Source of the DNA: Candidatus Saccharimonadota bacterium
GTDB taxonomy: Bacteria > Patescibacteriota > Saccharimonadia > Saccharimonadales > Saccharimonadaceae
Assembly (NCBI GenBank): GCA_000503915.1
Contig: CP006915.1
Coordinates: forward strand, 813,465-845,464
DNA length: 32,000 bases
Reading direction: 5' to 3'
In this document: piece after piece, positions 3,104 through 27,712 of the stretch
Numbering within the stretch: the stretch's first letter is position 1
How the letters are laid out: each line of letters opens with the position of its first letter
Notes under the pieces: generated by a model
The model's input: the letters and a program-made list of their open reading frames with translations, nothing else
The model's database searches: none
Told to the model about the DNA's origin: nothing
Position numbers and translations under genes: made by a program

Positions 3104-3535
3104 TTATATATCAAGGTCGTCGAGTTCGGCAAGTTCTTTACGCGACTTTTTTGCGTAATCTGACTCGTCGTTATTTTGTGAGTTTTCCACAACTTCATCA
3201 TCATCGTCATCTGTTGCAGTAACGGGTCGGTCATCCACAGGCTGGCTTGATGGTTCATCTGATGACATCGTATAGCTCTCGCGCTGGTCGTCATTGTTGA
3301 CGATCTTGAGGTTGTAACGCGCGTCATTCTTTGTACCCAAGGCGCGCAGCAGTGTACGCAGGCTTTGGGCAGTCATACCGCGCTTTCCGATCACCCGGCC
3401 CAAGTCCTCAGGGTTGACGGTAAGCGTTAGCAGTACGCCTTTTTCATCGATGATCCGGTCGATCGTTACGTCTCCTGGATGCTCGACGAGTGATTTGACG
3501 ATGTACTCGACAAATTGTTGGTCTATGGTTGTCAT
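3104..3535 (-). CDS. KH-domain RNA-binding protein (YlqC/UPF0109-like) with a long acidic C-terminal tail.
   Basis: N-terminus VEYIVKSLVEHPGDVTI...VNPEDLGRVIGKRGMTAQSLRTLL (the GxxG KH motif). GGAGGAGGG ribosome-binding site upstream. It occupies the conserved position between rpsP and trmD. Confidence 0.85.
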   Translation of the reverse strand: MTTIDQQFVEYIVKSLVEHPGDVTIDRIIDEKGVLLTLTVNPEDLGRVIGKRGMTAQSLRTLLRALGTKNDARYNLKIVNNDDQRESYTMSSDEPSSQPVDDRPVTATDDDDDEVVENSQNNDESDYAKKSRKELAELDDLDI

Positions 3536-3645
3536 GATTGCCCTCCTCCGGTCGCTCTATAACTCTACTGTCGTACGAGGCTATTATAACACCAGCGAGC
3601 CGAATGAAGCGAAAGTTTACTTGCGCCTCTCTAGGTGACCTGGTG

Positions 3646-7048: not shown

Positions 7049-7487
7049 CGTTTTTTCCTTCTACAAGCGTTCGATAGGCTGTCCCGAGGACGCCGTTGAT
7101 GAACTTGCTTGAGTTTTCAGAACCAAATGCCTTTGCCAGTTCAACCGCTTCGTTGATCACTACCTTTGGCGGTACTGTATCAGCTTGATGAAGTAGCTCG
7201 TAGAGCCCCATTCGGAGGACGTTGCGGTCGATCCGGGCGATCTGATCGATCGGCCAGCCCGGTGCCATCTCTTGTAGCTTTTCATCCATCTCGGCCTGGT
7301 ACTCTAAGACGCCATTTACCAGCGTGCTGACAAATCCCTTGTCATCGATTGCTTCCTGGTAGCGCTCAATATTACGCGTCAGTATCTCGGTGAGGTCAAC
7401 GCTTTCATCAGCTGACGACGTACGAAACTCGTACTCGTAGAGCGTTTGCAAAGCGACGATTCGCCCAAGATGTCGATTTGAGGCCAT
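7026..7487 (-). CDS. nusB: Transcription antitermination factor NusB.
   Basis: 153 aa, RIVALQTLYEYEF...AIINEAVELAKAFG-type NusB pattern. Overlaps the downstream NUDIX gene by 23 nt. Confidence 0.9.
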   Translation of the reverse strand: MASNRHLGRIVALQTLYEYEFRTSSADESVDLTEILTRNIERYQEAIDDKGFVSTLVNGVLEYQAEMDEKLQEMAPGWPIDQIARIDRNVLRMGLYELLHQADTVPPKVVINEAVELAKAFGSENSSKFINGVLGTAYRTLVEGKNDANTSTR

Positions 7488-7791: not shown

Positions 7792-8151
7792 ATGAAAGAT
7801 GTGTTGGATAAAACCCCGAACAAGCTTCGGACTTCGACGGTAGCTATTGTAGCTGTCATGAGCGGTATCGCACTTAATAGCTGCACCGCCGCTGACAAAG
7901 GAACTGCACCAACTCCCGCCTGTGCTATCCACATTGAGCGGGGTGATACGCTCTATAGTATCGCCGCTGCGAGCGACATGGATATACGCGAAGGCATTGC
8001 CGAGATGAAACAGATTAATTCAGGTGTCGACGCCGGTCATCTAAGCATTGGAGACGATGTGGCGATCAGCTCACAGATGTGTCAGGATATTATTGGCAAC
8101 AAAAAAAATACCTTGGATCTGCGCCCACTACACGACGATCTCAATCAGTAA
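7792..8151 (+). CDS. LysM-domain lipoprotein.
   Basis: Signal peptide with a lipobox-like LNSC, then a LysM motif (IERGDTLYSIAAAS...INSGVDAGHLSIGDDVAI). The 3' end overlaps the leuS stop by 11 nt (convergent). Confidence 0.75.
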   Translation: MKDVLDKTPNKLRTSTVAIVAVMSGIALNSCTAADKGTAPTPACAIHIERGDTLYSIAAASDMDIREGIAEMKQINSGVDAGHLSIGDDVAISSQMCQDIIGNKKNTLDLRPLHDDLNQ

Positions 8152-11044
8152 TTACAATACTCACCAGCCGGCCGGGAACGTAAATCGTCTTGGCCGGTTT
8201 TTGTGTACCGACAAATTTCTGAACATTTTCATCAGCCAGAGCCGCCGCGATAGCATCTTCTTTACTGACATCTTTAGCGAGCTCGAGTTTGGCACGTACT
8301 TTCCCGTTTACCTGAACAACGATTGTCGCTGTTTCGCTAGTCGTGAGCGCCTCATCCCACGATGGCCATGGTGCAGTATCGAGCGACTCTTCGTGTCCGA
8401 GCTGCTGCCAAAGTTCAGCGCTGAGATGTGGCGCAAATGGAGCGAGTAGCTGGGTCATGGTCTCTAATACGTCACGCCATGGTTTATCACTAAATCCATC
8501 AGCTTTTAATTTGTATAGTTCATTCGTTGCTTCCATCATAGCTGCAATGGCGGTATTGAAACTCAATCGGTGCAAGTCTTCGGTGACTTTTTTCGTCGTC
8601 TTATGTTGCAAACGACGAACCGCATCGTCCTGCTGGGTGTCCGCTACTGTGTCAGCTGCTAGATATTCCTGTGTCAATGTCCAGACGCGCGTCAGGAAAC
8701 GATAGACACCGGCTAGGCCATTAGTGCTCCAGGCTGAATCTTCTTCGATTGGACCAACAAACAGCAGGAAGGTGCGTAATGCATCAGCGCCGTAGCCTTG
8801 GTCGATAATGTCGAGTGGGTCAATGACATTGCCAAGGCTTTTACTCATCTTGCGGCCGTCCTCGGCTTGGATCAGGCCGTGGTAGACTAGTTTCTTAACT
8901 GGCTCCTTGCTCGGTACCAGTCCCATGTCGTAAAAAACGTGATTCCAGAAGCGGACGTAGAGCAAATGCGCGACCGCATGGTCGCCACCAACATAGTAGT
9001 CAACCGGTGTCCAGTAGTCGGCCTTTTCTTGCGACCAGGCTTGCTGGTCGTTCTTCGGGTCGGTGTAGCGCAGCAAATACCAGCTACTACAGGCGTAGCC
9101 GTCCATGGTATCAGTTTCACGCTTTGCTGGGCCACCACACTCAGGACAGGTCGTATTAACCCAGTCGTCGACGCGCGCCAGCACTGATTTACCGTCACCT
9201 TTTGGGGCGTAATCTTCTACTTCTGGCAGCACCACTGGCAGCTGATCTTCTGGCACCGCCACGGCGCCATCTTTTTCACAATGAATGATCGGAATCGGCG
9301 CACCCCAATAACGCTGGCGAGAAATCAGCCAATCGCGCATTTTGTAGGTGGTCATCATCTTGCCTGTTCCCTGCTCTTCCAGCCAGGCAACAACCTCTTC
9401 ACGCGCCTCACTCGTCGGCATGCCGTCAAAAGCTCCAGAATTTACCAGTACACCCTCATTGGCATATACGGCTGTCTTTTGATCTAGATACGCCAGCCAT
9501 ACTTTTAGATGCGTCTGCCAGGTAAGCTTTTTAGCTACCTGATCTTTTGTAATCCACTCAATAGTGTGCTTGCCCTCATCAACTTCACTTCTGATTTGAG
9601 TTTTTGAGCCAAGCATAACTTCATATGCAGCACCTCTATAGCGATGATTCACCCCTTTGTCCGGACGATAGGCAATACCGGAAATGATTGGGAAAATTTT
9701 TCTGACACTTACAATATCTGTATAGCCCGTCTCCTCAGCTACTTCCCTACGTAGTCCGTCTTCCGTCGAAGAGTCTTCTTGTTCAATCCCTCCCCCAACG
9801 AAGTGCGTATCGGTCACCCCACCTTCTGTTGAAGTTTGTAGCAAGTAATTACCCTCGCCATCGCAGATGACTGCATCCGCCACGTTTCGATCGATAGTCT
9901 CAGCGTCTAACTCTGGCTCAAAGTGATCGCCACTAATATGATGCTCAGCAACCACTTGCACTACTGGCAATTTGTACTTCTCTGCAAATTCATAATCACG
10001 TTCGTCATGAGCCGGCACAGCCATGATAGCGCCCGTGCCGTAGCCACCAAGGACATAGTCGGCAATCCAGATAGGAATTTTTTCTCCCGTGGCTGGATTG
10101 ATGGCATAGGAGCCGGTAAATACACCTGTTTTTTCTTTGCCTTCACTTTGACGCTCAATCTCAGACTTTTTCAGCGCCGTTTTTACATAAGCGTCGACAT
10201 TTTCGTGCGTCTCATCAGTCGTCAGTGCCTCGACTAGCGAATGCTCCGGCGCAATAACCATGAAGGTAGCACCGAAAATCGTGTCGGGACGCGTCGTAAA
10301 TACGGTGAGCGTTTCATCATGCTCGGCGACCAAGAACTCAATCTCGGCACCCTGGCTTTTGCCGATCCAGTTGGTTTGGGCAGTTTTGATCTTTTCCGGC
10401 CAGTCGAGCGCCGGGATTTCTTCGAGCAGCGCATCGGCATAGTCAGTAATCTTGAAAAACCATTGGCGAATATTCTTTTTTTCAGCCAGTGGATCGTCGG
10501 GACCATCGTGGCGCCAGCACTTGCCATTGATAACCTGCTCGTTGGCAAGCACCGTTTGATCGATCGGACACCACCATTGCAACGAATCTTTCTGATAAGC
10601 CAGGCCACGCTCAAAAAACTTGGTAAAAACCCATTGGGTCCAGCGATAGTAGTCGGGGTCGGACGTATTGATCTCGCGCGACCAGTCGATACTGGCGCCG
10701 AGCCGTTTTAGCTGATGAGTAAAATTGGCGATATTGTCTTTGGTCACTTTGGCCGGTGCCATGCCGGTCTTGATCGCGTAATTTTCAGCGGGCAGTCCAA
10801 ATGCATCCCAACCCATCGGGTTCATGACATTGCGGCCGTGTGCACGTTGAAAACGGGCAATTGCATCGACAACCGAATGTTCCATAGCATGGCCAGAGTG
10901 CATACCGGCGGCACTTGGGTACGGGAACATAGGAGAAATATAGAATTTTTCCCTATCGCCGCCGTCGCTTGCCTGGTAGCGGCGCTCGTCCGCCCAAACT
11001 TTTTGCCAGCCAGGCTCGATCTCACTCGGATTGTATCGCTGCAT
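8141..11044 (-). CDS. leuS: Leucine--tRNA ligase with an inserted NUDIX-like domain.
   Basis: 967 aa. HIGH-region variant (PYPSAAGMHSGHAMEH), CP1 editing domain, AHDERDYEFAEKYKLP, KMSKS. There are about 165 extra residues at positions roughly 366-530. Confidence 0.97.
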   Translation of the reverse strand: MQRYNPSEIEPGWQKVWADERRYQASDGGDREKFYISPMFPYPSAAGMHSGHAMEHSVVDAIARFQRAHGRNVMNPMGWDAFGLPAENYAIKTGMAPAKVTKDNIANFTHQLKRLGASIDWSREINTSDPDYYRWTQWVFTKFFERGLAYQKDSLQWWCPIDQTVLANEQVINGKCWRHDGPDDPLAEKKNIRQWFFKITDYADALLEEIPALDWPEKIKTAQTNWIGKSQGAEIEFLVAEHDETLTVFTTRPDTIFGATFMVIAPEHSLVEALTTDETHENVDAYVKTALKKSEIERQSEGKEKTGVFTGSYAINPATGEKIPIWIADYVLGGYGTGAIMAVPAHDERDYEFAEKYKLPVVQVVAEHHISGDHFEPELDAETIDRNVADAVICDGEGNYLLQTSTEGGVTDTHFVGGGIEQEDSSTEDGLRREVAEETGYTDIVSVRKIFPIISGIAYRPDKGVNHRYRGAAYEVMLGSKTQIRSEVDEGKHTIEWITKDQVAKKLTWQTHLKVWLAYLDQKTAVYANEGVLVNSGAFDGMPTSEAREEVVAWLEEQGTGKMMTTYKMRDWLISRQRYWGAPIPIIHCEKDGAVAVPEDQLPVVLPEVEDYAPKGDGKSVLARVDDWVNTTCPECGGPAKRETDTMDGYACSSWYLLRYTDPKNDQQAWSQEKADYWTPVDYYVGGDHAVAHLLYVRFWNHVFYDMGLVPSKEPVKKLVYHGLIQAEDGRKMSKSLGNVIDPLDIIDQGYGADALRTFLLFVGPIEEDSAWSTNGLAGVYRFLTRVWTLTQEYLAADTVADTQQDDAVRRLQHKTTKKVTEDLHRLSFNTAIAAMMEATNELYKLKADGFSDKPWRDVLETMTQLLAPFAPHLSAELWQQLGHEESLDTAPWPSWDEALTTSETATIVVQVNGKVRAKLELAKDVSKEDAIAAALADENVQKFVGTQKPAKTIYVPGRLVSIVITD

Positions 11045-18791: not shown

Positions 18792-18910
18792 CAGGGTTTC
18801 ACCTTTAACAGATCAAATAAGGCCGGCTTCTATTTTTGAAGAAACCGGGAGTCATAAATCATACATGCCAATTAAAAAACCGAGGCTAGGCCTCGATGTT
18901 TTAATTGGTG
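18792..18910. repeat. Left copy of the ~120-bp direct repeat.
   Basis: Aligns base for base with 24663-24782 apart from a few substitutions and a 1-nt indel. It contains two minus-strand terminator-like hairpins (CGAGGCctaGCCTCG + T6; CCGGTTTCTTcaaaaataGAAGCCGG). Confidence 0.85.
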
Positions 18911-19013
18911 GAGTTTTACAACTAAGTTCGAGCCGAATTTGAGCGCTAGGGCTGAAGCGTAAGCTTGGCCCCGATGCCTGCGGGCGTGTAACGCCCGCTC
19001 GTCCCACCAAAAA
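18905..19013. other. Unassigned structured RNA-like segment (cloverleaf-like, not a canonical tRNA).
   Basis: The ends pair (GGTGG...CCACC). Three internal hairpins are present: AAGTTCG-agc-CGAATTT; GGGC..AAGC-GTAA-GCTT..GCCC, with a GNRA loop on the plus strand; and GCGGGCG-tgtaa-CGCCCGC. The plus strand ends TCGTCCCACCA and the minus strand ends AACTCCACCA. It sits where tRNA-Gly sits relative to the other repeat copy. Confidence 0.3.
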
Positions 19014-19112
19014 ACCCTTTGCCTTATTTTTTATTTCCCCCACCGAGATTTCTTTTTTAGTTGAAAAGGGTGCCTTCTGGTGGTGGCGTATTGCTTGGCA
19101 ACTTTGGCGATG

Positions 19113-20942
19113 TTACCTAACGAGATCTGTCGACCAGTTGTTAAGGATATCCTCTGTGTTCGCAACCCAGACATCGGAGCTTTCTGATGATTCTGCGTTT
19201 TCTGCAATGCTCTCGACGAGATTTCGGAGATTATCATGAGTAAAGCGTCTGCCAGACTTTCTAATTTGTTTGAGAGTTTTCAGAATTAAGACAAATTGGT
19301 TGATTGTGATTGGTGTAATCTTTTGCTTGCTGCCTTTGTAGCCATGGACATTAGCAATCCAAAATGTTTCGGCACTGTCGGTATGAATCGTCGGTGCGAT
19401 AAATATACAATAGGCATTTTGATTTGTTGCCTCGAAGTCTCGGAGGTGTCGCATAACAGGTTGACCTTCGTTGTACCACTGGTCGCGCCCACTGAGCATC
19501 GTAACTTCACAAATCATATTGAAGTCGTCGTAGTAACACTCTATATCCGCCATGCCGCCAGGAGCAGTAGACGTTGGTTCATTATCATCTCCAACGGGAT
19601 AGTTCGGCTTTATCTCCTTTGCGTCGTTGAGTGCGTGTAGTCCCATTGTTGAGAGATATTCTAGGCGTAGCGGTCGATTTTCAGCAGTAAAGATATTTTC
19701 TAGCTGCTCAATGTAGTCAGTGATTGATTCAACAGGTTGCGACTTTACGTGATTATCCTGCTCTTGCAGTTCTTTTCGCAAGGCTCGTAACTCACTAATG
19801 TAGTCGTTAAGCTCTGCTTCGCTCATTTCTGAGGTATTTTTTACGCTAAGAACTGACAAACCGAGATCTATTTGCAGACTACTAACATCATCGTAAACTT
19901 CAGACACTATTCCAGCTAACTTATCTTTAGTTTGCCACGGCAAACGTGGCTGACTATCGTCTGACATGTAACCCAAGTACTCATCTTTGTCGATGAACGT
20001 CTTTGGCTTGTAAAATGCTGTTTCAAATAGTGACTCAATCTCCGTATGACGGTTAGGCTCTAAGTCGATATAAAATCCATTACCACGAATACGAATGAAC
20101 TTTGTAAGGCGGAAGTATCGTATTGCATTATCACCGTAATCACGTAGATTCTTAAGATGTGTATCTATTTCTTTTTGCACGCTTGAGCCAAGAAAGCTGA
20201 CAGCAAAGCTACGTCGATAACTATCACGCATTGCCTTCCTGTCTGCCTTTGTTTTACCTTTTTGAGCCTCTCGGAGCTTCACGATCTCATTTGCATATCT
20301 GGATATATCACGGTAATTAATTAGCGTAGGGACAAATAAGCAGAACTCTCGTTTGCTAATGCCGACCGACTTATTGCCTCGATCCGACCATAGTTTATTT
20401 ACCTCACTAATGAGCTTGAGCATTGCCACAAACGGCACGACGTCGTATTTGCCATCATCACTGTAGTCATTGCTAGCTGGGTTGGGTATTTGCCACTTAA
20501 TAAACGACTTAAGGAATACATCGCCAGAATCTTTTTCACTTGCTATCAGTTTTTGACCAAGCTCTGTGATTTTCAAAATACCATTATCTATGAATGCAAA
20601 GCCAAACTTTGTGAGCGGGTTGATTGACTGGCGACCACGCATCGAGAAATCTTGATAGTTTTTTGCTTCAATAATGCGGTCGATTATAGTGCCGGTAATC
20701 TCAGCATCGACATCGTTAATAGTGGCTACAACATCAGGAGGCAAACCGTTATAAAACTGCTGACTTCCGTAACCATATAAGCGATTCTTGATGAGTAGTT
20801 TTTGATATTCTTTCTGGCTATCTCGATTCCACTCTTTGCCAACAAGGGGTTGCAAGGCAACTAAAAATGCTCTCAGCCGTTCAGGGCTGCGAACGGTGGT
20901 TGATATTGACCACATTTTTGACATAATATCATTATATCTCAC
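19113..20942 (-). CDS. Type IIS restriction (or nicking) endonuclease, AlwI/PleI/MlyI/N.BstNBI family.
   Basis: N-terminus WSISTTVRSPERL, central FLKSFIKWQIPNP, and a C-terminal catalytic block ADIECYYDDFNMICEVTMLSG...QPVMRH...CIFIAPTI...GRRFTHDNLRNLVESI. All resemble my recollection of N.BstNBI. The likely start is the ATG at 20924. Confidence 0.7.
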   Translation of the reverse strand: MRYNDIMSKMWSISTTVRSPERLRAFLVALQPLVGKEWNRDSQKEYQKLLIKNRLYGYGSQQFYNGLPPDVVATINDVDAEITGTIIDRIIEAKNYQDFSMRGRQSINPLTKFGFAFIDNGILKITELGQKLIASEKDSGDVFLKSFIKWQIPNPASNDYSDDGKYDVVPFVAMLKLISEVNKLWSDRGNKSVGISKREFCLFVPTLINYRDISRYANEIVKLREAQKGKTKADRKAMRDSYRRSFAVSFLGSSVQKEIDTHLKNLRDYGDNAIRYFRLTKFIRIRGNGFYIDLEPNRHTEIESLFETAFYKPKTFIDKDEYLGYMSDDSQPRLPWQTKDKLAGIVSEVYDDVSSLQIDLGLSVLSVKNTSEMSEAELNDYISELRALRKELQEQDNHVKSQPVESITDYIEQLENIFTAENRPLRLEYLSTMGLHALNDAKEIKPNYPVGDDNEPTSTAPGGMADIECYYDDFNMICEVTMLSGRDQWYNEGQPVMRHLRDFEATNQNAYCIFIAPTIHTDSAETFWIANVHGYKGSKQKITPITINQFVLILKTLKQIRKSGRRFTHDNLRNLVESIAENAESSESSDVWVANTEDILNNWSTDLVR

Positions 20943-20944
20943 TG

Positions 20945-23023
20945 TCAGTAGTTTGTAATTAGTACCTCGACCGTTTTATTATTCTTTGCCATTGAGTGAT
21001 AGTTAGAGTTTTTGTAGTGATAGTCAAGTTTGTTAATGTGGTAGCTGTTTTTTTCCACCCATTTCTTCATTATCTCGTTAACTTCACCTTTATGCTCCAA
21101 TACGTTTGAGAGGGCGAACCGTATATTTTTTTTATGTAGCTTAGTGAGCAGAGTGTACAAGTCTTTTTCATCCTTTTCTGTCCAGCCACCCAGCTCATTA
21201 TAGCTTGCTAAGCCTAGCAGATATGGAGGGTCGAGATACACAAAGTCATCTTTTTGCAATTTCATCATTTCTATATCTCGAAAGTCAGCATGTTTGAATG
21301 TAATGTTTTTTTCGTTCGCCGCTTGATTGAACGCCGCAACATTTCTTCTTGAGCTGCCGTTATAGTCACGTTTACCCACGGGTAGATTGAAGTCACCCTT
21401 TGAATTGAATCGTATCTGATTATTGAACGAGTAGAGAACTAGTATGAGTAATAGGTCAATACGTTTTTTAGATTTATTGAACTCATCACGCAACTCAAGA
21501 AATGCTTGTTTATTAACTTTTCCAAGCCCAGCCGAGCTTTCAGCTCCATAAAAATCATAGCCTTTTATGTAGCTCTGACTTAGACCGAACTTATCGATAA
21601 TATCGACAATTTGTTGATTCAGGTCATCAAAATTAGTACCTTGTATTAGCTGCAAAAGGTCAATGACATTCTTATTTTTCTCGACACAGATGATACTTTG
21701 GGCATCGGCATTTATGCCAACATTTGCACCCCCAGCAAACACATCGTAAAAAGTATTGATGTTTTCAGGGAATAGCTTTGTAATCTGCGGCAGCAGTTTA
21801 TGTTTTCCGCCAGTATAGTTGAGGGGTGACTTAACATAGCCACTTTGTATAGGGTTTCGCTTTGATGCGACTATGGATTTTTGTGTTGTAGTTGTGCTAT
21901 TAACTTTACATAAAAAGATTCGTTCTTTCAGATCATCTTTGTTTGATTTGCCAGTTGTAAACTGCTTAAAATCAGTCTCGTATATCTGAACCTCGCCTTT
22001 TCGCTTGAGGGCAGAGAGTATTTCATGGTCGCTGATTCGTGATTGAGAACGTGCGTTGCCAGAACCACCCATATCGTTATAAGAAACGAGAATGTATTTT
22101 GCATTGATTGCGTCGATGAGTTCGCCAAAAGCAACACCCGCTGATTTCATACTGTACTTACTCTTTATATGGTCTCGATTGATTTTCTTTGCAACGCCAA
22201 ACACCTCTTGCTTATGCCATGATGCGATGTTTTCCAGCAAGTGGTAAGCATCAGAATATTGCCGTGAATTATAGGGCGGGTCGATGTATACCACATCGGC
22301 TTTTATTTGCTTTACTAACTCATTTGCATCACTTTTATATATCGTTGCTTTGTATTTTGAGGATTTTACATTAAGCGGCAGGAGGAATAGCTCTTTCTTA
22401 GGAATATCTATTTTTCTATACGCATCGTAGTGTCCAACAGTATTTGCGATTCTATCAAGAGCATAGATAAGCGAGGTGAGTAAATATGACTTTTCTCTCG
22501 GAGTAATAATCTTTTCTTCAAATAATTTCTCTATATCATCTCGAATGATGCCAATTTTCTTTGAGTTTATTTTGTCAAAGTAGGTATTTGCAAAGTTCTT
22601 TGAAAAGTAATTGTCATCGTATTTTTCTATGTCTAGGGAATTATAAACTTTAAGTCGTTTTTTCAGTTTCTCCTCTCTAATTTCATCATTTCCAAAAAAA
22701 GCATTATAAGCATGGTGGTTTGAATCGAGGATATCGTTTACAATGATTTGGGAGCGGTCGTAAAAGTGATTTGCAACCGACCCAGTACCTGCAAAGATAT
22801 CTGCAAATGAGTTGAACTTTATATTTTCCTTCTGCAATATGCTGTCAATAAAGTTTAGTAGCTTTGTTTTTGAGCCAAGATAACGTCTTTGTGTTATACA
22901 GAATGATTTATTTCCAAAATATGCATCGTCCATACTCCCAATATAGCTTAATGTGGTTATGCTAACAATACCGAATTTTAAGATTTTTGGGTTTTGTGGA
23001 TAAGTGTACTGACTATGGTTCAA
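20945..23023 (-). CDS. Fused double N6-adenine DNA methyltransferase (two D12/Dam-class domains).
   Basis: Two copies of the motif pair: FADIFAGTGSV...VVYIDPPYNS and FYDVFAGGANV...FVYLDPPYLL. An RYLGSKTKLL N-terminal motif is present. This architecture is typical of type IIS systems that methylate both strands of an asymmetric site. The track start is TTG; an alternative ATG lies at 22933. Confidence 0.9.
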   Translation of the reverse strand: MNHSQYTYPQNPKILKFGIVSITTLSYIGSMDDAYFGNKSFCITQRRYLGSKTKLLNFIDSILQKENIKFNSFADIFAGTGSVANHFYDRSQIIVNDILDSNHHAYNAFFGNDEIREEKLKKRLKVYNSLDIEKYDDNYFSKNFANTYFDKINSKKIGIIRDDIEKLFEEKIITPREKSYLLTSLIYALDRIANTVGHYDAYRKIDIPKKELFLLPLNVKSSKYKATIYKSDANELVKQIKADVVYIDPPYNSRQYSDAYHLLENIASWHKQEVFGVAKKINRDHIKSKYSMKSAGVAFGELIDAINAKYILVSYNDMGGSGNARSQSRISDHEILSALKRKGEVQIYETDFKQFTTGKSNKDDLKERIFLCKVNSTTTTQKSIVASKRNPIQSGYVKSPLNYTGGKHKLLPQITKLFPENINTFYDVFAGGANVGINADAQSIICVEKNKNVIDLLQLIQGTNFDDLNQQIVDIIDKFGLSQSYIKGYDFYGAESSAGLGKVNKQAFLELRDEFNKSKKRIDLLLILVLYSFNNQIRFNSKGDFNLPVGKRDYNGSSRRNVAAFNQAANEKNITFKHADFRDIEMMKLQKDDFVYLDPPYLLGLASYNELGGWTEKDEKDLYTLLTKLHKKNIRFALSNVLEHKGEVNEIMKKWVEKNSYHINKLDYHYKNSNYHSMAKNNKTVEVLITNY

Positions 23024-23040
23024 GAGGACTGTTCTCTTAT
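23022..23040. repeat. 19-bp direct repeat, copy 1 (AAGAGGACTGTTCTCTTAT; internal palindrome AAGAG-N-CTCTT).
   Basis: Identical to 24642-24660. It overlaps the stop of the 120-aa ORF and the annotated TTG start of the methyltransferase. Confidence 0.8.
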
Positions 23041-23399
23041 GTAGGTGCTACGAACAAGAGCCATACCACAACCCCTGAAAGTCCATAGATAAGCAGAACA
23101 ATTACTCCAATTCCAAATGTCCCCCTTAAGCCCTCACGTACTAACTTTGCAACTGGATGGTTTTTTCGCAGCGAGGGTTCAAGTTCTCGCCAAAGTTCTG
23201 CTAATTGGTCAAGACAGAAAAGCATAATTAACAAACCTGCAATGCTAACTACAAGATCTGGAATAGTGATTGAGATTGCTAATGAGCTTACTCCAAAATG
23301 AGCTAAATACGAGTAAAGAAATACGTACGCAAGAGCATAGGCAAACGCTGAGGCTATTAGGACACGTGTTCCATCCGTAATCGTGAAGTTACGAAACAT
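23037..23399 (-). CDS. Small integral membrane protein (3-4 TM), hypothetical.
   Basis: 120 aa, strongly hydrophobic segments, 9 nt downstream of the PurM-like gene. Confidence 0.6.
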   Translation of the reverse strand: MFRNFTITDGTRVLIASAFAYALAYVFLYSYLAHFGVSSLAISITIPDLVVSIAGLLIMLFCLDQLAELWRELEPSLRKNHPVAKLVREGLRGTFGIGVIVLLIYGLSGVVVWLLFVAPT

Positions 23400-23408
23400 A
23401 TTAGTTAC

Positions 23409-24551
23409 CTAAAACTCCAGCCACTCACTATCTGAACCAGCACCAAGATTGCGAATTTTAATACCTGGCTTTTCTGTTACTACGCCAATCTCTTGTGCAA
23501 CAACACCGTGCTGCTCGGCAGCCTCAAGAACTTTCTCTGGTTCGTTAGTTGCAACTACCATACCTGGCCCCATGTGCCATTTTCCATAAGCCGTCCTGTC
23601 GTCAAAGCCACGAATCTCTTGCATCTTCAGCATAATGTCGGGCGGGGTATTAGGATTACTAATCTCCACACCAAGCCCACTTGGCTCTAACATTCTTCCA
23701 ATTTTACTGGGCTGACCACCACCAGTTATGTGAGCAACTCCAGTCACCCTAGCAAGTGATTCCTTTGCAATGTCATAACCCCCCGTTAATTCAGACATAA
23801 AGCCAGAGTAGATTATCGAAGGGGCTTGTACAAGTTTACCGAGAGCTACATCGCTCAGTGAACGGTCAATTTTGTTGTGCCAGTCTTCACCATATTCTTT
23901 CAGCATAGCTTTGCGAACGTCAGTAATTCCATTTGAACGGAAGCCGTGTTCGCTAAAACCAACGAGTGTGTTGCCTGCTTCAATTTGATGTCCTGTCAAT
24001 ATACGGTCTTTATGAGCGACCCACAAGATTGCAGCACCCCAGTTGTAATTAAACTCTCCAAACCCTCCAACACGGTCTCCAAGCTCTGCCACTTCACCAT
24101 TCACTACAGCAACCTTTGCAAGCCCTGCAGCCGCTACGTAACCGTATGCGAGTTGACGAAGTGCCTCTCGTGTATGTTCTGTATCGTCCAACTGCCGAAC
24201 ATCTAAAATTGTTCCGATTGCGAGTGGCTCAGCGCCCCGCACAACCGCATCATCACATACCATAGCAAACAAGTCATGAGCCACGGTCGAATGGTTATCC
24301 ATGCGCTCGGCTATCTCAATTTTTGTACCTACCCCATCAAAACCTAGATTGATTTCAAGATTTTCAAAATCTTTATCCTTAAACTGAGAAAGAGGGATTG
24401 AACGGAACCCAGAGAAGGATTCATGTGCTTCTCGCACTAATCCTGGTCGATTAGCGTGAGTATGCTTCGATGCTTCGTAAAGCATTTTTGAGGCATCGTC
24501 TCCTAGTTCAATGTTAACGTCTTGGATTGGTCTGCGAGATAGTTCTGTCAT
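23409..24551 (-). CDS. PurM-family (AIR synthase-like) ATP-dependent enzyme, an orphan copy.
   Basis: 380 aa. DGVGTKIEIAERM, AMVCDDAVVRGAEPL, NGEVAELGD and GFSEHGFRSNGITDVRK all parallel PurM motifs (DGVGTK, D-x-AMxVND, GGETAEMP, SSGxHSNG). Confidence 0.8.
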   Translation of the reverse strand: MTELSRRPIQDVNIELGDDASKMLYEASKHTHANRPGLVREAHESFSGFRSIPLSQFKDKDFENLEINLGFDGVGTKIEIAERMDNHSTVAHDLFAMVCDDAVVRGAEPLAIGTILDVRQLDDTEHTREALRQLAYGYVAAAGLAKVAVVNGEVAELGDRVGGFGEFNYNWGAAILWVAHKDRILTGHQIEAGNTLVGFSEHGFRSNGITDVRKAMLKEYGEDWHNKIDRSLSDVALGKLVQAPSIIYSGFMSELTGGYDIAKESLARVTGVAHITGGGQPSKIGRMLEPSGLGVEISNPNTPPDIMLKMQEIRGFDDRTAYGKWHMGPGMVVATNEPEKVLEAAEQHGVVAQEIGVVTEKPGIKIRNLGAGSDSEWLEF

Positions 24552-24641
24552 GTATCAACTATACAGGACGAAAATAAATGCAAAAAGCATAAGCAACTCT
24601 ATTACATTAAGCTGGAGTTAGAAACCATGTTTAAGAGGTTT

Positions 24642-24660
24642 AAGAGGACTGTTCTCTTAT
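24642..24660. repeat. 19-bp direct repeat, copy 2.
   Basis: Identical to 23022-23040. It lies about 90 nt upstream of the PurM-like start and 2 nt from the right ~120-bp repeat. Confidence 0.8.
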
Positions 24661-24662
24661 AA

Positions 24663-24782
24663 CAGGGTCTCACCCTTAACAGATCAAATAAGGCCGGCTT
24701 CTATTTTTGAAGAAACCAGGAGTCATAAATCATACATACTAATTAAAAAACCGAGGGGCAAGCCTCGATGTCTTAATTGGTG
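24663..24782. repeat. Right copy of the ~120-bp direct repeat. Its last 5 nt are the 3' end of tRNA-Gly(GCC).
   Basis: See 18792-18910. Confidence 0.85.
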
Positions 24783-24853
24783 CGGGTTAGGAGACTCTAA
24801 CTCCTGGCCTCTTCCATGGCAAGGAAGCGCTCTAACAACTGAGCTAAACCCGC
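24778..24853 (-). tRNA. tRNA-Gly (anticodon GCC), CCA encoded.
   Basis: The reverse complement is GCGGGTTTAGCTCAGTTGTTAGAGCGCTTCCTTGCCATGGAAGAGGCCAGGAGTTAGAGTCTCCTAACCCGCACCA. All four stems pair perfectly. The D-loop is AGTTGTTA and the T-loop is TTAGAGT. Confidence 0.9.
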
Positions 24854-24900
24854 ATATGTGATCAGTGATATATTAGTCACTGGATGAAATGTACAAACAT

Positions 24901-24977
24901 GAGCTTTCTTGGCCTGGCAACTCTTCACTCTAACAGCTGACCTGCCCGCCGGGCGTGACAGGCGGGGCTAAACCCGC
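24901..24977 (-). pseudogene. Degenerate tRNA-Gly(GCC)-like copy carrying the hairpin module in its D-loop.
   Basis: The minus-strand read is GCGGGTTTAG, then CCCCGCCTGTCACGCCCGGCGGGCAGG, then TCAGCTGTTAGAG TGAAGAGTTGCCA GGCCAAGAAAGCTC. It is collinear with tRNA-Gly(GCC), but the anticodon stem is unpaired and the T-arm and 3' end are missing. Confidence 0.5.
24941..24967 (-). repeat. GC-rich hairpin module, copy 2 (variant core).
   Basis: The minus-strand read CCCCGCCTGTC-ACGCCCGGC-GGGCAGG shares both termini with the copies at 1068 and 26154. Confidence 0.6.
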
Positions 24978-25037
24978 ATGTTGTTTTCAAGGAGTAATTA
25001 TAGATGAACAGAGCGTTAATTTCAACATTACTCATAG

Positions 25038-25068
25038 AAAAACACCGACGCTCTGGTTCGGTGTTTTT
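25038..25068 (-). terminator. Intrinsic terminator after tRNA-Phe.
   Basis: AAAAACACCGA-N9-TCGGTGTTTTT lies directly downstream of the tRNA 3' end on the minus strand. Confidence 0.6.
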
Positions 25069-25070
25069 CC

Positions 25071-25146
25071 TGGTGGCTCCTACTGGACTTGAACCAGTGA
25101 CACAAGGCTCTTCAGGCCTCTGCTCTACCAACTGAGCTAAAGAGCC
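25071..25146 (-). tRNA. tRNA-Phe (anticodon GAA), CCA encoded.
   Basis: The reverse complement is GGCTCTTTAGCTCAGTTGGTAGAGCAGAGGCCTGAAGAGCCTTGTGTCACTGGTTCAAGTCCAGTAGGAGCCACCA, a canonical cloverleaf. Confidence 0.9.
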
Positions 25147-25349
25147 TCGTCGGCGTTCACTATCAACCTCAACTTTTAAACTAGTTTAAAAGTTTCGATT
25201 TCCCGTTACGCCTCCTCTCAATTTTTCAAACAGTCGCTTTGCTCCTTGGTTTAAAAAATTGGGGTGCCGCAACACGGAACGAGAACACTCATCATTGTAG
25301 CTAAACTAGGGTAAAATCACAAGTCAAACCTTGCTACAATGAACTTAAC

Positions 25350-25394
25350 GCGGGTATCGTATAACGGCCACCCGGGTGACCTTCCCCCGCCTGT
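25350..25394 (+). other. 5' part of a split tRNA-like unit (acceptor strand GCGGGTA plus a D-arm-like segment), ending in the left half of the hairpin module.
   Basis: GCGGGTATCGTATAACGGCCACCCGGGTGACCTTCCCCCGCCTGT. The first 18 nt parallel the 5' end of tRNA-Gly(CCC). GCGGGTA is exactly complementary to TACCCGC at 26189-26195. A TACAAT box ends 9 nt upstream. Confidence 0.5.
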
Positions 25395-25396
25395 AC

Positions 25397-25470
25397 GCGA
25401 GATTAGTATAGTGGCAGTACGCTTGCTTCCCAAGCAAGAGGCGCCAGTTCGATTCTGGTATCTCGCACCA
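25397..25470 (+). tRNA. tRNA-Gly (anticodon CCC), CCA encoded.
   Basis: GCGAGATTAGTATAGTGGCAGTACGCTTGCTTCCCAAGCAAGAGGCGCCAGTTCGATTCTGGTATCTCGCACCA folds as a cloverleaf with anticodon loop TTCCCAA. Confidence 0.9.
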
Positions 25471-25521
25471 AGCATAAGCATTATGATCTCTGTTAATTCA
25501 GAGGTTTTTAAATTATTTGCA

Positions 25522-25550
25522 TTGACAAATATACTATTTTAAGTTAAAAT
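25522..25550 (+). promoter_or_regulatory. Promoter (TTGACA, 17-nt spacer, TAAAAT) for the winged-helix gene.
   Basis: Hexamers read directly. A strong AAAGGAGGTGA ribosome-binding site follows. Confidence 0.55.
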
Positions 25551-25591
25551 ATGATAACTTCACCTATCTCTATTTGAAAGGAGGTGAAGAG

Positions 25592-25996
25592 ATGGAGATG
25601 ACCCAGTCAATCAAGCTGGTCGGAAAGCCCGAAGACGTCATCCGAGATGCAACACTGCTGCAAGAGTTCTTGGAGGGTCTGGAGACTGCCGCGGGCGAGA
25701 TCCCCGATGTCGGCAATCACCAAGAGTGGCCGACATACGTCGATGGGCTTCTGGAGTTCCAGGGCGCTAGCGTGACTGTTTCCGAGAAGCTCGGACGTAC
25801 GCTGTCGATCCTCCTGTATGCTCATGGCTCACTGGTCACGCGCAAGACACTCCAAGACATCGTTGTCGAAGAAGGCAAGAAGCCCAACGAGGCACTAGTG
25901 CGGATATCACGTCTGCGCGCACTGCTGTCGAAGGACATGCCTAGACTCGAGATCGAGTCAGTGGGTACCGGCTACAGGCTCAAGATCGTCGACTGA
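25592..25996 (+). CDS. Stand-alone OmpR/PhoB-type winged-helix DNA-binding protein (no receiver domain).
   Basis: The C-terminus LVTRKTLQDIV...EALVRISRLRALLSKD...IESVGTGYRLKIVD matches the Trans_reg_C pattern. The start was moved to the ATG at 25592, because the track TTG at 25574 includes the ribosome-binding site. It is about 55% GC in a counted 60-nt sample, against about 18% in the upstream spacer. Confidence 0.7.
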   Translation: MEMTQSIKLVGKPEDVIRDATLLQEFLEGLETAAGEIPDVGNHQEWPTYVDGLLEFQGASVTVSEKLGRTLSILLYAHGSLVTRKTLQDIVVEEGKKPNEALVRISRLRALLSKDMPRLEIESVGTGYRLKIVD

Positions 25997-26141
25997 CAAT
26001 CAGTTCCTCCATCCCATCACCCTCATGAAAGGAATGCACCCTCTGGGAGCCCCTCAAATGAGGGTGCTTCCATATCTGACAAAGTTCTAAGTGTGTCGGT
26101 GAGGGGGCACCAAAATACGAGACGGGAGGCAAGGTTGAGAC

Positions 26142-26199
26142 AGGAGTTCGACTCCCCGCCTGTCTGTTCGACAGAACGGGCAGGTCCTTACCCGCACCA
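26142..26199 (+). other. 3' part of the split tRNA-like unit: T-arm-like AGGAGTTCGACTCC, hairpin module, then TCCTTACCCGC-A-CCA.
   Basis: The 3' end parallels tRNA-Gly(GCC) (..CTCCTAACCCGCACCA). It contains module copy 3 at 26154-26184 (CCCCGCCTGTCTGTTCGACAGAACGGGCAGG). Confidence 0.5.
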
Positions 26200-26248
26200 T
26201 TACCGATAAGAATCGGGTAATTCACACCCGCTACCGTGGAAACCAGAT

Positions 26249-26626
26249 CTATTTCCGCAAAGCTCCTAGTAAAGGGATGCTAAGAAACACCATTATTGCT
26301 ACGTCCACGAGGACGTTTATATAAACCCCGTAGATTATAGAAATAATCGCCTCAAACACGAGCCATGCACCAATACCAAGCAACAGTATCTTCGTAAGCT
26401 CATGATCCTTCTTCTGAATCGCACGACGGCCTACTAGAAGCAGCAAAATGCTAAACCCAATGAAACTGGCGCCATAAAGTCCCTGACTCCACTTTTTAAA
26501 GAATGCCTCTGGTACAATTTTTTGGTAAATGGGTAAGCCCTCCAGTCCAAATACTGCATAAAAAATCCCAAATACGATACCGATAAGTCCGGCGATAGTT
26601 ATCCATAGAAGATACTTCTGTTTCAC
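26249..26626 (-). CDS. Integral membrane protein (4 TM), hypothetical.
   Basis: 125 aa with four hydrophobic helices. Confidence 0.6.
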   Translation of the reverse strand: MKQKYLLWITIAGLIGIVFGIFYAVFGLEGLPIYQKIVPEAFFKKWSQGLYGASFIGFSILLLLVGRRAIQKKDHELTKILLLGIGAWLVFEAIISIIYGVYINVLVDVAIMVFLSIPLLGALRK

Positions 26627-26689
26627 TCATAGTATTATAGTGCAAAGCTAGATGAAAGCGATACTCTATACACAGGTTCTCTCCGTATA

Positions 26690-27712
26690 TCACTCGAGTG
26701 CAAGCTGAATAATTGTATCGATCAGCGATGCGTACGAGATGCCTTCAGCTTGCCACAATTTTGGATATTGGCTGATGTTGGTAAAGCCGGGCAGCGTATT
26801 AAATTCATTAAGATACACACCCGACTCATCCGCAAAGAAATCGACGCGCGCTAGGCCTCGGCAGCCAAGAAGCGCATATGACTTATGCGCGATCTGCTGA
26901 ATCTCTCGGCGCAGCTCGTCAGGAATATCGGCTTTCGTGACAACTTGCGCCTTACTATCGGTAGCATATTTGTCTTCGTAGCTATAAAATTCCTCACCAG
27001 GGATAATCTCGCCGACGCCACTTTCGCGGTGCGTTGGCGGATTGCCTAGCACCGCTACCTCCAGCTCGCGCCCTGTAATTGCCTGCTCGATCAATACCAC
27101 TGAGCTGTGCTTTGAAGCTTTCTCGATAGCGGGGATCAGCTCGTCTTTCCTGTGCACTTTACTGACGCCGATCGAGCTGCCGGCTACCGTTGGTTTTACA
27201 AACAGCTGCTCACCGAGCCGCGATGCTAACGCTTCGTACTCCGGCATTTCATCGCCCACATGATAGACGTGGTAAGGTACTACCGGGATGTCATTTTGCG
27301 CCAGCAGTTGCTTAGTATAGAGCTTGTCCCAACAAACCGCGCTAGCGCCGAGACCTGACCCAACCGCTGGGATATGCGTCAGATTAGCAAGACCTTGCAC
27401 GGCACCATCTTCGTGGCCATTCTCACCATGTAGTACCGGGAAAAGTACGTCGATATGAATTGGCCTATTACCGGGAACGGTCAGAAATGCACTGCTCCCC
27501 GGTACCGGCGCAAGCTGCACCCCACCGTGAAGCTGTAGATTCGTTGGCCAGCTCTCAAGGAACCACCATTTACCTGCTCGATCGATATAACAGAGGTGGA
27601 CATCGTATTTTCTGTCATCCATCGCCGCATAGACATTGCTAGCGCTCATCACAGAAACATCGTGTTCAGACGATTCACCGCCAAAAAGGAGTAAAATGCT
27701 TGGTCGGCTCAT
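26690..27712 (-). CDS. ddl: D-alanine--D-alanine ligase.
   Basis: MSRPSILLLFGGESSEHDVS...EFNTLPGFTNISQYPKLW. The start was moved to the ATG at 27712, which has a TGcTATAAT box 10 nt upstream. Confidence 0.9.
   Translation of the reverse strand: MSRPSILLLFGGESSEHDVSVMSASNVYAAMDDRKYDVHLCYIDRAGKWWFLESWPTNLQLHGGVQLAPVPGSSAFLTVPGNRPIHIDVLFPVLHGENGHEDGAVQGLANLTHIPAVGSGLGASAVCWDKLYTKQLLAQNDIPVVPYHVYHVGDEMPEYEALASRLGEQLFVKPTVAGSSIGVSKVHRKDELIPAIEKASKHSSVVLIEQAITGRELEVAVLGNPPTHRESGVGEIIPGEEFYSYEDKYATDSKAQVVTKADIPDELRREIQQIAHKSYALLGCRGLARVDFFADESGVYLNEFNTLPGFTNISQYPKLWQAEGISYASLIDTIIQLALE

Follow-up and report, generated by a model that had tools for sequence, protein, structure and literature searches.

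Comparison of a 32,000-nucleotide stretch of the chromosome of Candidatus Saccharibacteria RAAC3_TM7_1 (hereafter the window) with related genomes indicates that its positions 25350–26199 are probably the tRNA-Gly(CCC) gene native to this lineage, which has become a pseudogene and was hit by successive stem-loop insertions. In particular, this outer gene carries three lesions: a 744-bp block (25386–26129), which lies between anticodon nucleotides (nt) 35 and 36 and holds a second, complete tRNA-Gly(CCC) gene and a winged-helix-turn-helix (wHTH) gene; a 30-nt palindromic unit (26155–26184) within the T-stem; and a rewritten D-arm (GGCTATTATGTG changed to GGCCACCCGGGTG). We favour a reading of the locus as a nest of small recombinase-less insertions, in which a pseudogenised tRNA surrounds a replacement tRNA.

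The interrupted tRNA-Gly(CCC) gene and its empty site

The decisive test is the empty site in relatives. Among the loci from other assemblies used for comparison (designated by L-numbers) are several retrieved through the neighbouring Ddl protein, including L031 and L033 (Ddl 81–83% identical). Both carry an uninterrupted tRNA-Gly(ccc) gene at the syntenic site, between the Ddl side and tRNA-Phe (L031 5616–5690, L033 1541–1615). This tRNA equals the sum of window positions 25350–25385, 26130–26154, and 26185–26199 at 69 of 75 nt, and all 6 mismatches fall in the 3′ side of the D-arm, where the window has GGCCACCCGGGTG and the relatives have GGCTATTATGTG. Because the syntenic uninterrupted tRNA equals the reconstruction, the segment is best read as a native tRNA gene with lesions, arranged as follows.

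25332–25340 (+): candidate extended −10 element of the outer tRNA, TGCTACAAT, as read from the sequence; no other promoter candidate is available for the inner tRNA
25350–25385 (+): outer tRNA-Gly(CCC), nt 1–35, comprising the acceptor 5′ strand, a degenerate D-arm, the anticodon stem 5′ strand, and the loop to C35
25386–25396 (+): block's left junction, made of CCCGCCTGT (a truncated copy of the unit, its initial 9 nt; exact, 9/9, at the tRNA breakpoint), then AC
25397–25470 (+): inner, complete tRNA-Gly(CCC) (ARAGORN; Rfam tRNA, 67.7 bits)
25471–26112 (+): wHTH gene cassette, starting with the tRNA trailer AGCATAAGCATTAT and a hairpin (25485–25506)
25522–25550 (+): cassette promoter, TTGACA-17-TAAAAT
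25558–25565 and 25582–25589: 5′ untranslated region (5′-UTR) hairpin, CTTCACCT/AGGTGAAG, 8 bp, covering the Shine–Dalgarno sequence GGAGG
25592–25996 (+): wHTH open reading frame (ORF), 134 aa
26089–26112 (+): conserved cassette 3′ region ending AAGTGTGTCGGTGAGGGGGCACCA, the end being the tRNA-3′-end-like GGCACCA
26113–26129 (+): right junction, or trailer, AAATACGAGACGGGAGG, 17 nt, ending ACGGG-AGG
26130–26154 (+): outer tRNA, nt 36–60, comprising C36 AA, the anticodon stem 3′ strand, the variable loop, the T-stem 5′ strand, the T-loop, and the first base of the T-stem 3′ strand; identical to L031 and L033
26155–26184 (+): complete unit, CCCG-CCTGTCTGTTC-GACA-GAACGGGCAGG, lying as an insertion within the outer T-stem
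26185–26199 (+): outer tRNA 3′ end, comprising TCCT (T-stem), TACCCGC (acceptor 3′ strand), A, and CCA; identical to L031 and L033

When the junction offsets were scanned, ARAGORN called an outer tRNA-Gly(ccc) solely in sequence from which the 744-bp block and the 30-nt unit had both been deleted. The reconstructed tRNA has the anticodon loop TTCCCAA, the anticodon stem TGACC/GGTTG, and a collapsed D-arm, drawn by ARAGORN with a D-stem of 1 bp. Specifically, AGGAG-TTCGACT-CTCCT-TACCCGC-A-CCA remains once the unit is taken out, and this sequence provides a perfect T-arm, the acceptor strand, and CCA. The insertion in the T-stem is precise and without target duplication: L031 reads GACTCTCCTT (GACTC^TCCTT, the caret here and below marking the point of insertion), where the window reads GACTC[30 nt]TCCTT. 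In its present state the outer copy does not have four intact arms, the D-arm being lost and the anticodon loop and T-stem being interrupted, and it presumably has no decoding function. Upstream of the intact L031 orthologue, CTACAAT stands at the same distance as the candidate −10 element of the window. Within the D-arm, at 25369–25378, a compact replacement of TATTAT by CACCCGG makes a 10-nt palindrome, CACCCGGGTG, and this replacement could be the footprint of a further insertion or excision.

A preliminary description of the segment, made from the sequence alone, had read it as a single 759-bp miniature integrative element that entered the hairpin module of an 81-nt tRNA-like RNA with a 10-bp target duplication (CCCCGCCTGT). 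The sequences that it quoted at 25350–25394 and 26154–26199 are present as given, and its view that a tRNA-type gene was split by inserted DNA is borne out by the empty site. The search for empty sites in relatives that it proposed did find one, in L031 and L033, but what stands there is an uninterrupted, plain 75-nt tRNA-Gly(CCC) with no hairpin, not an 81-nt hairpin-bearing precursor. The empty site shows two insertions, so that the tRNA is restored only by two deletions, of 744 bp and 30 bp; the target of the block is the anticodon loop at nt 35/36, not the hairpin module, and the complete hairpin at 26155–26184 is an independent insertion in the T-stem. The joined 81-mer does form the 7-bp acceptor-like helix, but ARAGORN does not recognise it as a tRNA even at a relaxed threshold, and it is a chimera of two repeat copies. 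The 10-nt repeat is present at 25385–25394 and 26154–26163, yet it neither bounds one 759-bp insertion nor represents a target duplication. The leading C of either copy is a tRNA base (C35 of the anticodon in the left copy, a T-stem C in the right one), which leaves only 9 nt as the 5′ end of the unit, the left copy being the truncated unit at the left junction of the block and the right copy being the start of the complete T-stem unit. The hairpin does recur at 1070–1099, where no chance match is expected, but as a dispersed repeat copy inside a dead tRNA-Gln copy (dead copies are called ghosts below), not as an uninterrupted locus. A single element would account for a repeat and a perfect acceptor pairing that are both real, for a hairpin that is contiguous at 1070–1099, and for an insert without a recombinase; it is nonetheless very improbable, being refuted by the empty site, and its supposed target duplication is the shared terminus of a dispersed unit known from more than 25 places. 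The earlier observation is therefore partly supported: it is real but was mis-parsed, with the target, the boundaries, and the pre-insertion unit wrong, and the insertion, the empty site, and the recombinase-less tRNA-associated cassette right.

The 744-bp block, its cassette, and same-anticodon nests

The block holds a complete tRNA-Gly(CCC), as the preliminary description had it. This inner tRNA is approximately 65% identical to the outer gene, is of a different sequence type, and is 86% identical to an inner tRNA-Gly(CCC) in a second nest, found on L020, a contig that lacks synteny with the window and comes from an unrelated metagenome-assembled genome (MAG), the richest in units. There, a tRNA-Gly(CCC) that is otherwise perfect and whose anticodon arm is the same (GTGACCTTCC^CAAGGTTGAG) is broken at the same bond (35/36) by a 24-nt leader, the inner tRNA-Gly(CCC), and a 20-nt trailer. 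The leader and trailer are complementary, and in the predicted fold the inner cloverleaf sits on a helix of approximately 15 bp that continues the outer anticodon stem; the helix predicted for the window is weaker. The trailers of the two nests end alike (TACGGAGTACGGG^CAAGG in L020 and TACGAGACGGGAGG^CAAGG in the window). Just upstream of the L020 nest lies an orphan 5′ half of an inner-type tRNA, broken at the same bond and followed by leader-like sequence. In total, three breaks at bond 35/36 are present in tRNA-Gly(CCC) genes of two sequence types (one in the window and two in L020). The same contig contains, at 7077–7320 (+), an old tRNA-Val(GAC) whose D-loop is interrupted by a block of 94 nt made up of ATACC, an intact tRNA-Val(GAC), and GTATATAAAGCA, with a 30-nt unit seven bases beyond; ARAGORN rebuilds the old tRNA-Val once the block and the unit are removed.

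The two junctions of the window block differ in clarity. The left junction matches the 5′ end of the unit exactly. The right junction resembles the 3′ end of the unit, ACGGGCAGG, with significance only in an alignment anchored there, and also the L020 trailer, TACGGAGTACGGG; as a free alignment against the unit, its score is no better than 12% of random windows and is not significant. Its origin is ambiguous: it may derive from a unit's 3′ end, or it may be an ancestral trailer homologous to that of L020. We considered a block bounded by two halves of one unit and did not adopt it: the left half is exact, and the right half is not significant and is equally explained by homology to the L020 trailer.

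The wHTH cassette largely agrees with the preliminary description. The promoter-like TTGACA-17-TAAAAT (11/12 matches) and a terminator-like hairpin (25485–25506) are present, the ORF has a G+C content of 0.57 versus 0.43 in the flanks, and the insert contains no recombinase and, in particular, no integrase, the wHTH gene being the only ORF in the 744-bp block. The 134-aa protein is 100% identical to RAAC3_TM7C00001G0955. Its assignment as an OmpR-type winged-helix protein is weak but consistent: residues 60–130 match Trans_reg_C with an E-value of 3.6e-5 and 24.2 bits, below the Pfam cut-off of 26.2; a match to the HilA/EilA N-terminal region is weak (E 4e-6); and a search of PDB sequences with the protein returned nothing significant. 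The 5′-UTR hairpin (25558–25589) is kept in all copies of the cassette, which suggests translational control of the wHTH mRNA.

Relatives of the cassette are present in L001–L005, L029, L030, L076, and L077, with proteins 75–90% identical and a 3′ region approximately 95% identical, and, counting contigs other than that of the window, wHTH relatives in that same range of identity lie on seven of them in differing neighbourhoods. The occurrence of the cassette in differing contexts of other genomes agrees with the tRNA-associated cassette that had been suggested as an alternative in the preliminary description. Conservation among the copies begins at the trailer AGCATAAGCATTAT, or at the latest at the −10 region, and reaches as far as AAGTGTGTCGGTGAGGGGGCACCA. 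The sole sequence shared by the two ends of the window's cassette is GCACCAA. In L029, L076, and L004 the cassette is immediately preceded by tRNA-Gly(UCC) or by a ghost 3′ copy of this gene; outside the window, five assemblies have the cassette after tRNA-Gly(UCC). L004 (2560–5473) has three cassettes, containing the wHTH gene, an HD-domain gene, and a 145-aa ORF, between tRNA-Gly(UCC) and tRNA-Arg(UCU), and all three end in a common 24-nt motif, AAGTGTGTCGGTGARGSGGCACCA, which also ends all wHTH cassettes. Because of the different neighbourhoods and the L004 array with its shared end motif, the wHTH cassette appears, from sequence comparison, to be a mobile module. L004 resembles an integron array only in its unrelated genes, each with one conserved end motif of approximately 24 nt; it differs in that the end motif mimics a tRNA 3′ end and is not an attC palindrome, in that the wHTH cassette has its own promoter, and in that no IntI or attI is seen on these short contigs.

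Several further features accompany the cassettes in other genomes. In L004, and also in L076 (1340–1520), ghost 3′ copies of tRNA-Gly contain a third kind of T-loop insert, which is approximately 60 nt long and starts AGCAAGGAGCA. In L004 a ghost tRNA-Arg 3′ end follows the intact tRNA-Arg. In L001 (766–2870), genes for an IS1595-family transposase and a Replic_Relax protein lie directly upstream of the wHTH cassette, cutting off its left end.

The 30-nt unit, ins2, and ghost tRNA genes

The unit has the family form CCCG-CCTGTCTGNNC-GACA-GNNCGGGCAGG and is exactly 30 nt long, apart from a few variants with the same ends and an altered middle. A scan of species-representative genomes returned 23 loci, all from Saccharibacteria-type MAGs except L022 (Beijerinckiaceae), which we set aside as a probable chance match. 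The unit is present on more than 20 contigs; the richest MAG has at least nine copies, and in the window one copy is truncated and three are complete, a variant of 26 nt included. Its 11-bp hairpin is 91.8% paired, with one pair that covaries (U-A, C-G, A-U) and two conserved U·G pairs, one of them invariant. Because of the conserved U·G pairs, the two strands of the unit are not equivalent. The loop of a longer palindrome holds most copies, as in GTCATTCTCAG-CTTGA^CTGAGAATGAC, and the others lie in tRNA-like sequence, with TAGC^TCAG in the D-arm as a recurrent site, on either strand. All copies in a tRNA context are in ghosts, with an intact tRNA of the same identity beside or inside the ghost where the context is visible. 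Removal of the unit from every unit-bearing tRNA copy recovered no intact tRNA, and the unit-bearing copies are therefore ghosts. A phage origin was considered and rejected, as the unit and the wHTH relatives are absent from IMG/VR and have no PHROG match. On this evidence, the unit is likely to be a dispersed, Saccharibacteria-specific repeat that inserts precisely, mostly into hairpin loops and into D-arms, anticodon arms, and T-arms of tRNA-like sequence.

Repetitive extragenic palindromic sequences (REPs) and their paired form, REPINs, are short extragenic palindromes mobilised by RAYTs, which are IS200/IS605-like HUH transposases. The unit resembles them in being a short imperfect palindrome that is dispersed in many copies per genome, encodes nothing, and makes no target duplication, in having an invariant 4-nt head, CCCG, and in being often nested in other hairpins. 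It differs in sequence, being unrelated to the classical GTAG-headed REPs, in occurring as single copies and not as inverted pairs, in preferring the loops of tRNA-like arms (for example TAGC^TCAG), and in having no linked RAYT. In particular, no RAYT (Y1 HUH transposase) was found among the window ORFs scanned against Pfam. Like a miniature inverted-repeat transposable element, the unit has arms that are inverted repeats; the target-site duplication of such elements is missing, as shown by GACTC^TCCTT versus GACTC[30]TCCTT.

The window contains further tRNA genes and ghosts, and one of the ghosts carries a second kind of structured insert, ins2.

823–896 (−): intact tRNA-Gln(CTG)
927–1115 (−): full-length ghost tRNA-Gln, directly upstream of the intact tRNA-Gln(CTG)
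947–1032 (−): ins2, 86 nt, in the T-loop of the ghost tRNA-Gln; other copies are L011 1–75 (−), L015 ~7100–7195 (−), L021 ~2535–2620 (−), and L026 ~3310–3400 and 3505–3592
1070–1099: unit, in the D-loop of the ghost tRNA-Gln
24778–24853 (−): intact tRNA-Gly(GCC)
24908–24977 (−): ghost 5′ copy of tRNA-Gly(GCC), ~55 nt upstream of the intact gene
25071–25146 (−): tRNA-Phe

A dead copy stands beside or around three of the four tRNA genes of the window. In the ghost tRNA-Gln, the anticodon loop is altered to 8 nt, in addition to the two insertions. In the ghost tRNA-Gly(GCC), a 26-nt variant unit, CCCGCCTGTCACGCCCGGCGGGCAGG (24941–24966), lies between nt 11 and 12 (TTAGC^TCAG); the ghost with its variant unit is absent from the relative L031. 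The ins2 element is approximately 85–88 nt long, forms three hairpins with a conserved GCAAGG linker, and always lies between T54 and T55/C56 of ghost tRNAs, namely the tRNA-Gln of the window and tRNA-Trp, tRNA-Ile, tRNA-His, and tRNA-Lys in other MAGs. Compensatory changes occur in 19 of its 33 predicted pairs (five sequences), and it has no Rfam match. Across the loci examined, which were partly chosen through the unit, so that the fraction is biased, partial copies lie within 1 kb of 20 of 47 tRNA genes. Ghost boundaries are recurrent, with nt 1–18 upstream and nt 57–77 downstream, and they are often accompanied by an inverted copy of the neighbouring arm; ins2 is often preceded by a copy of the T-arm in inverted orientation. 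The 30-nt spacer between the ghost and the intact tRNA-Gln contains TATAAT. A candidate transfer-messenger RNA (tmRNA) at 929–1120, where GGGGTTCGAATGGATTCGAC resembles a tmRNA 5′ end, was rejected: the sequence is the reverse complement of the T-arm and acceptor of the degenerate tRNA-Gln, and neither ARAGORN nor Rfam finds a tmRNA there.

The other genes of the window are those of an ordinary chromosome, including genes for leucyl-tRNA synthetase, Mur ligase, P-type ATPase, RNase III, TrmD, Ddl, trehalase, and pilins. Among the 30 largest ORFs, which were the window proteins examined by Pfam, there is no recombinase. The leucyl-tRNA synthetase (8141–11044, −) contains a NUDIX domain at residues 387–511, placed straight after the editing-domain match (225–371) and before the C-terminal catalytic-core match. 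Downstream of tRNA-Gly(GCC) is an island of approximately 5.9 kb with low G+C content (0.33–0.47; restriction-modification genes 0.33–0.43), which contains genes for an AlwI-type restriction enzyme, a D12-class adenine methyltransferase, an AIR-synthase-related protein, and a 120-aa ORF. The island is flanked by a direct repeat of approximately 120 nt (18792–18910 and 24663–24782; 95% identical over a 94-nt core), which begins at the CACCA of tRNA-Gly(GCC) and takes in the tRNA terminator; scans of the window ORFs found no integrase within the island (18792–24782). At its far end, at ~18975–19005 (−), is a G+C-rich hairpin, GAGCGGGCGTTACACGCCCGCAGGC, that is loosely like the variant unit and may be a further member of the palindrome family.

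Origin of the nests and relation to known systems

The block that entered the anticodon loop between nt 35 and 36 has as its core a promoterless tRNA-Gly(CCC) gene of foreign type, with the wHTH cassette joined at the CCA end of the inner tRNA and bringing its own promoter. In a mechanism that fits these comparisons, the inner tRNA would be the working gene. With a gap of only 11 nt between it and the outer gene, it would be transcribed from the outer gene's promoter, and the outer 5′ part would serve as a 47-nt leader to be removed by RNase P. Because the elements have no recombinase, the block, the cassette, and the units would be mobilised in trans by an enzyme that recognises stem-loops; an enzyme recognising hairpins in single-stranded DNA is a guess, and the most economical one. 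A promoterless tRNA block would be expressed only if it landed in sense within an active tRNA gene, and loss of the host gene would be harmless only if the block supplied the same anticodon. This filter of selection would by itself produce same-anticodon nests. The three breaks at one bond suggest a site preference, and a preference for TTCC^CAAG may add to the filter.

Several points weigh against this interpretation. A consensus promoter scan does not call the TGCTACAAT region upstream of the outer tRNA; the block's right end admits two readings, which makes the order of events at the left junction ambiguous; and the unit-bearing loci were chosen through the unit itself, so that its link with ghost tRNAs comes from a biased sample. 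The L020 outer tRNA, intact apart from its insert, fits a recent event and also fits a function at the RNA level. With no synteny between the window and L020 nests, shared ancestry and independent insertion are not separable. Finally, no enzyme, excision product, or polymorphic population was seen, and the mobility of the block is deduced from comparison only.

Two other histories draw on the same evidence. Decay with no site-specific element, in which a dispensable tRNA-Gly(CCC) degenerated, breaks in palindromes and loops were repaired with stray DNA (for example, from competence), units landed in neutral DNA, and selection produced the regularity, has an appreciable though minor chance of being correct. 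The tRNA-Gly(CCC) gene may indeed be dispensable, as it is absent at the site in the more distant L032 and L038; the outer gene has three independent lesions; every unit-bearing tRNA copy is a ghost; and the ghost fragments that flank 20 of the 47 tRNA genes in the loci examined point to frequent duplication and decay. However, the three breaks at bond 35/36 in two tRNA-Gly(CCC) sequence types, the ghost boundaries (nt 1–18 and 57–77) that recur across tRNAs and genomes, and the precise insertion of the unit with no target duplication are hard to obtain from random repair of breaks. It is less probable still, and indeed quite unlikely, that the nest acts as one transcript, in which an intron-like stalk of leader and trailer presents the inner tRNA to RNase P and RNase Z and the outer halves are ligated or paired into a functional tRNA. 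The perfect cloverleaf of the L020 outer tRNA apart from its insert and the predicted helix of approximately 15 bp that continues its anticodon stem would suit such a function, as would the weaker version of the helix in the window. Against it, the D-arm of the window's outer gene is destroyed and its T-stem holds a 30-nt hairpin. Moreover, the insert lies inside the anticodon, so that leader and trailer would stay in the loop, and a search of 24600–26700 against Rfam at E-values up to 10 returned only tRNAs and chance matches, with no intron or ribozyme model. To our knowledge, bacteria have no protein tRNA-splicing endonuclease.

The remaining possibility, that a metagenome-derived genome was mis-joined at short repeats, is the least probable of all. 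The RAAC3 genome paper does report that full resolution was not reached for a few short-repeat regions (PMC3812714), but independent assemblies agree on the cassette after tRNA-Gly in seven other contigs, on the L020 nest, and on the unit in more than 20 contigs, and the unit, at 30 nt, is shorter than the reads. We accordingly retain the nest of recombinase-less insertions as the preferred reading and compare it with known systems below.

Integrative elements that target tRNA genes likewise insert at the anticodon loop, as the block does at nt 35/36, at the T-loop, or at the 3′ end, as the cassette does at the CCA end. Together with their integrase-less derivatives, cis-mobilizable elements (CIMEs) and tycheposon-type cargo satellites (bioRxiv 10.1101/2020.12.28.424599), they resemble the elements described here in that small modules without an integrase stack by tRNA genes and leave partial tRNA copies. 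Classical elements of this kind restore the target with its 3′ segment as a direct repeat, whereas the outer gene of the window is not restored; a whole different tRNA is supplied inside the broken gene, the wHTH cassette repeats only GCACCAA, and the 744-bp block has no integrase. Split or intron-containing tRNA genes, such as archaeal split genes and bacterial genes with group I introns, share the interruption in the anticodon loop, and the complementary leader and trailer of L020 are a further likeness. They differ from the nest in the window, in which the outer gene is degenerate, the position is 35/36, and the insert is a tRNA and not a ribozyme. Specifically, no match to a group I catalytic-core covariance model was found (Rfam, 24600–26700, E up to 10), and the halves in the window are not intact like those of Nanoarchaeota-type split tRNAs, the D-arm being destroyed and the T-stem interrupted. 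The literature searched holds no description of the 30-nt repeat, of nested bacterial tRNA genes, or of relevant tRNA introns in the candidate phyla radiation (CPR), and the genome paper (PMC3812714) makes no mention of the repeat or of nested tRNA genes.

These results show turnover of tRNA genes in an ultra-small genome, and they provide a clean occupied-versus-empty pair for the 30-nt palindrome and what we count as two independent instances in which one tRNA gene sits inside another of the same anticodon. Because, in the loci examined, ghosts accompany approximately four in ten tRNA genes, caution is due with tRNA counts and with "pseudo-tRNA" calls for CPR genomes. A more far-reaching proposal, which we consider rather unlikely to hold, is that Saccharibacteria harbour undescribed recombinase-less stem-loop mini-elements, including a "replacement tRNA" element that would home to the anticodon loop (TTCC^CAAG) of the resident tRNA-Gly(CCC), kill this gene, supply its own copy, and be expressed from the promoter of its victim, with the unit, ins2, and the CCA-ended cassettes as other cargo states of the same machinery. 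If this is true, the "replacement tRNA" element would represent a selfish, addiction-like form of tRNA gene turnover. If one stem-loop-recognising enzyme mobilises these elements, it would provide a new route of gene-cassette exchange in bacteria that are largely without the usual mobile-element machinery.

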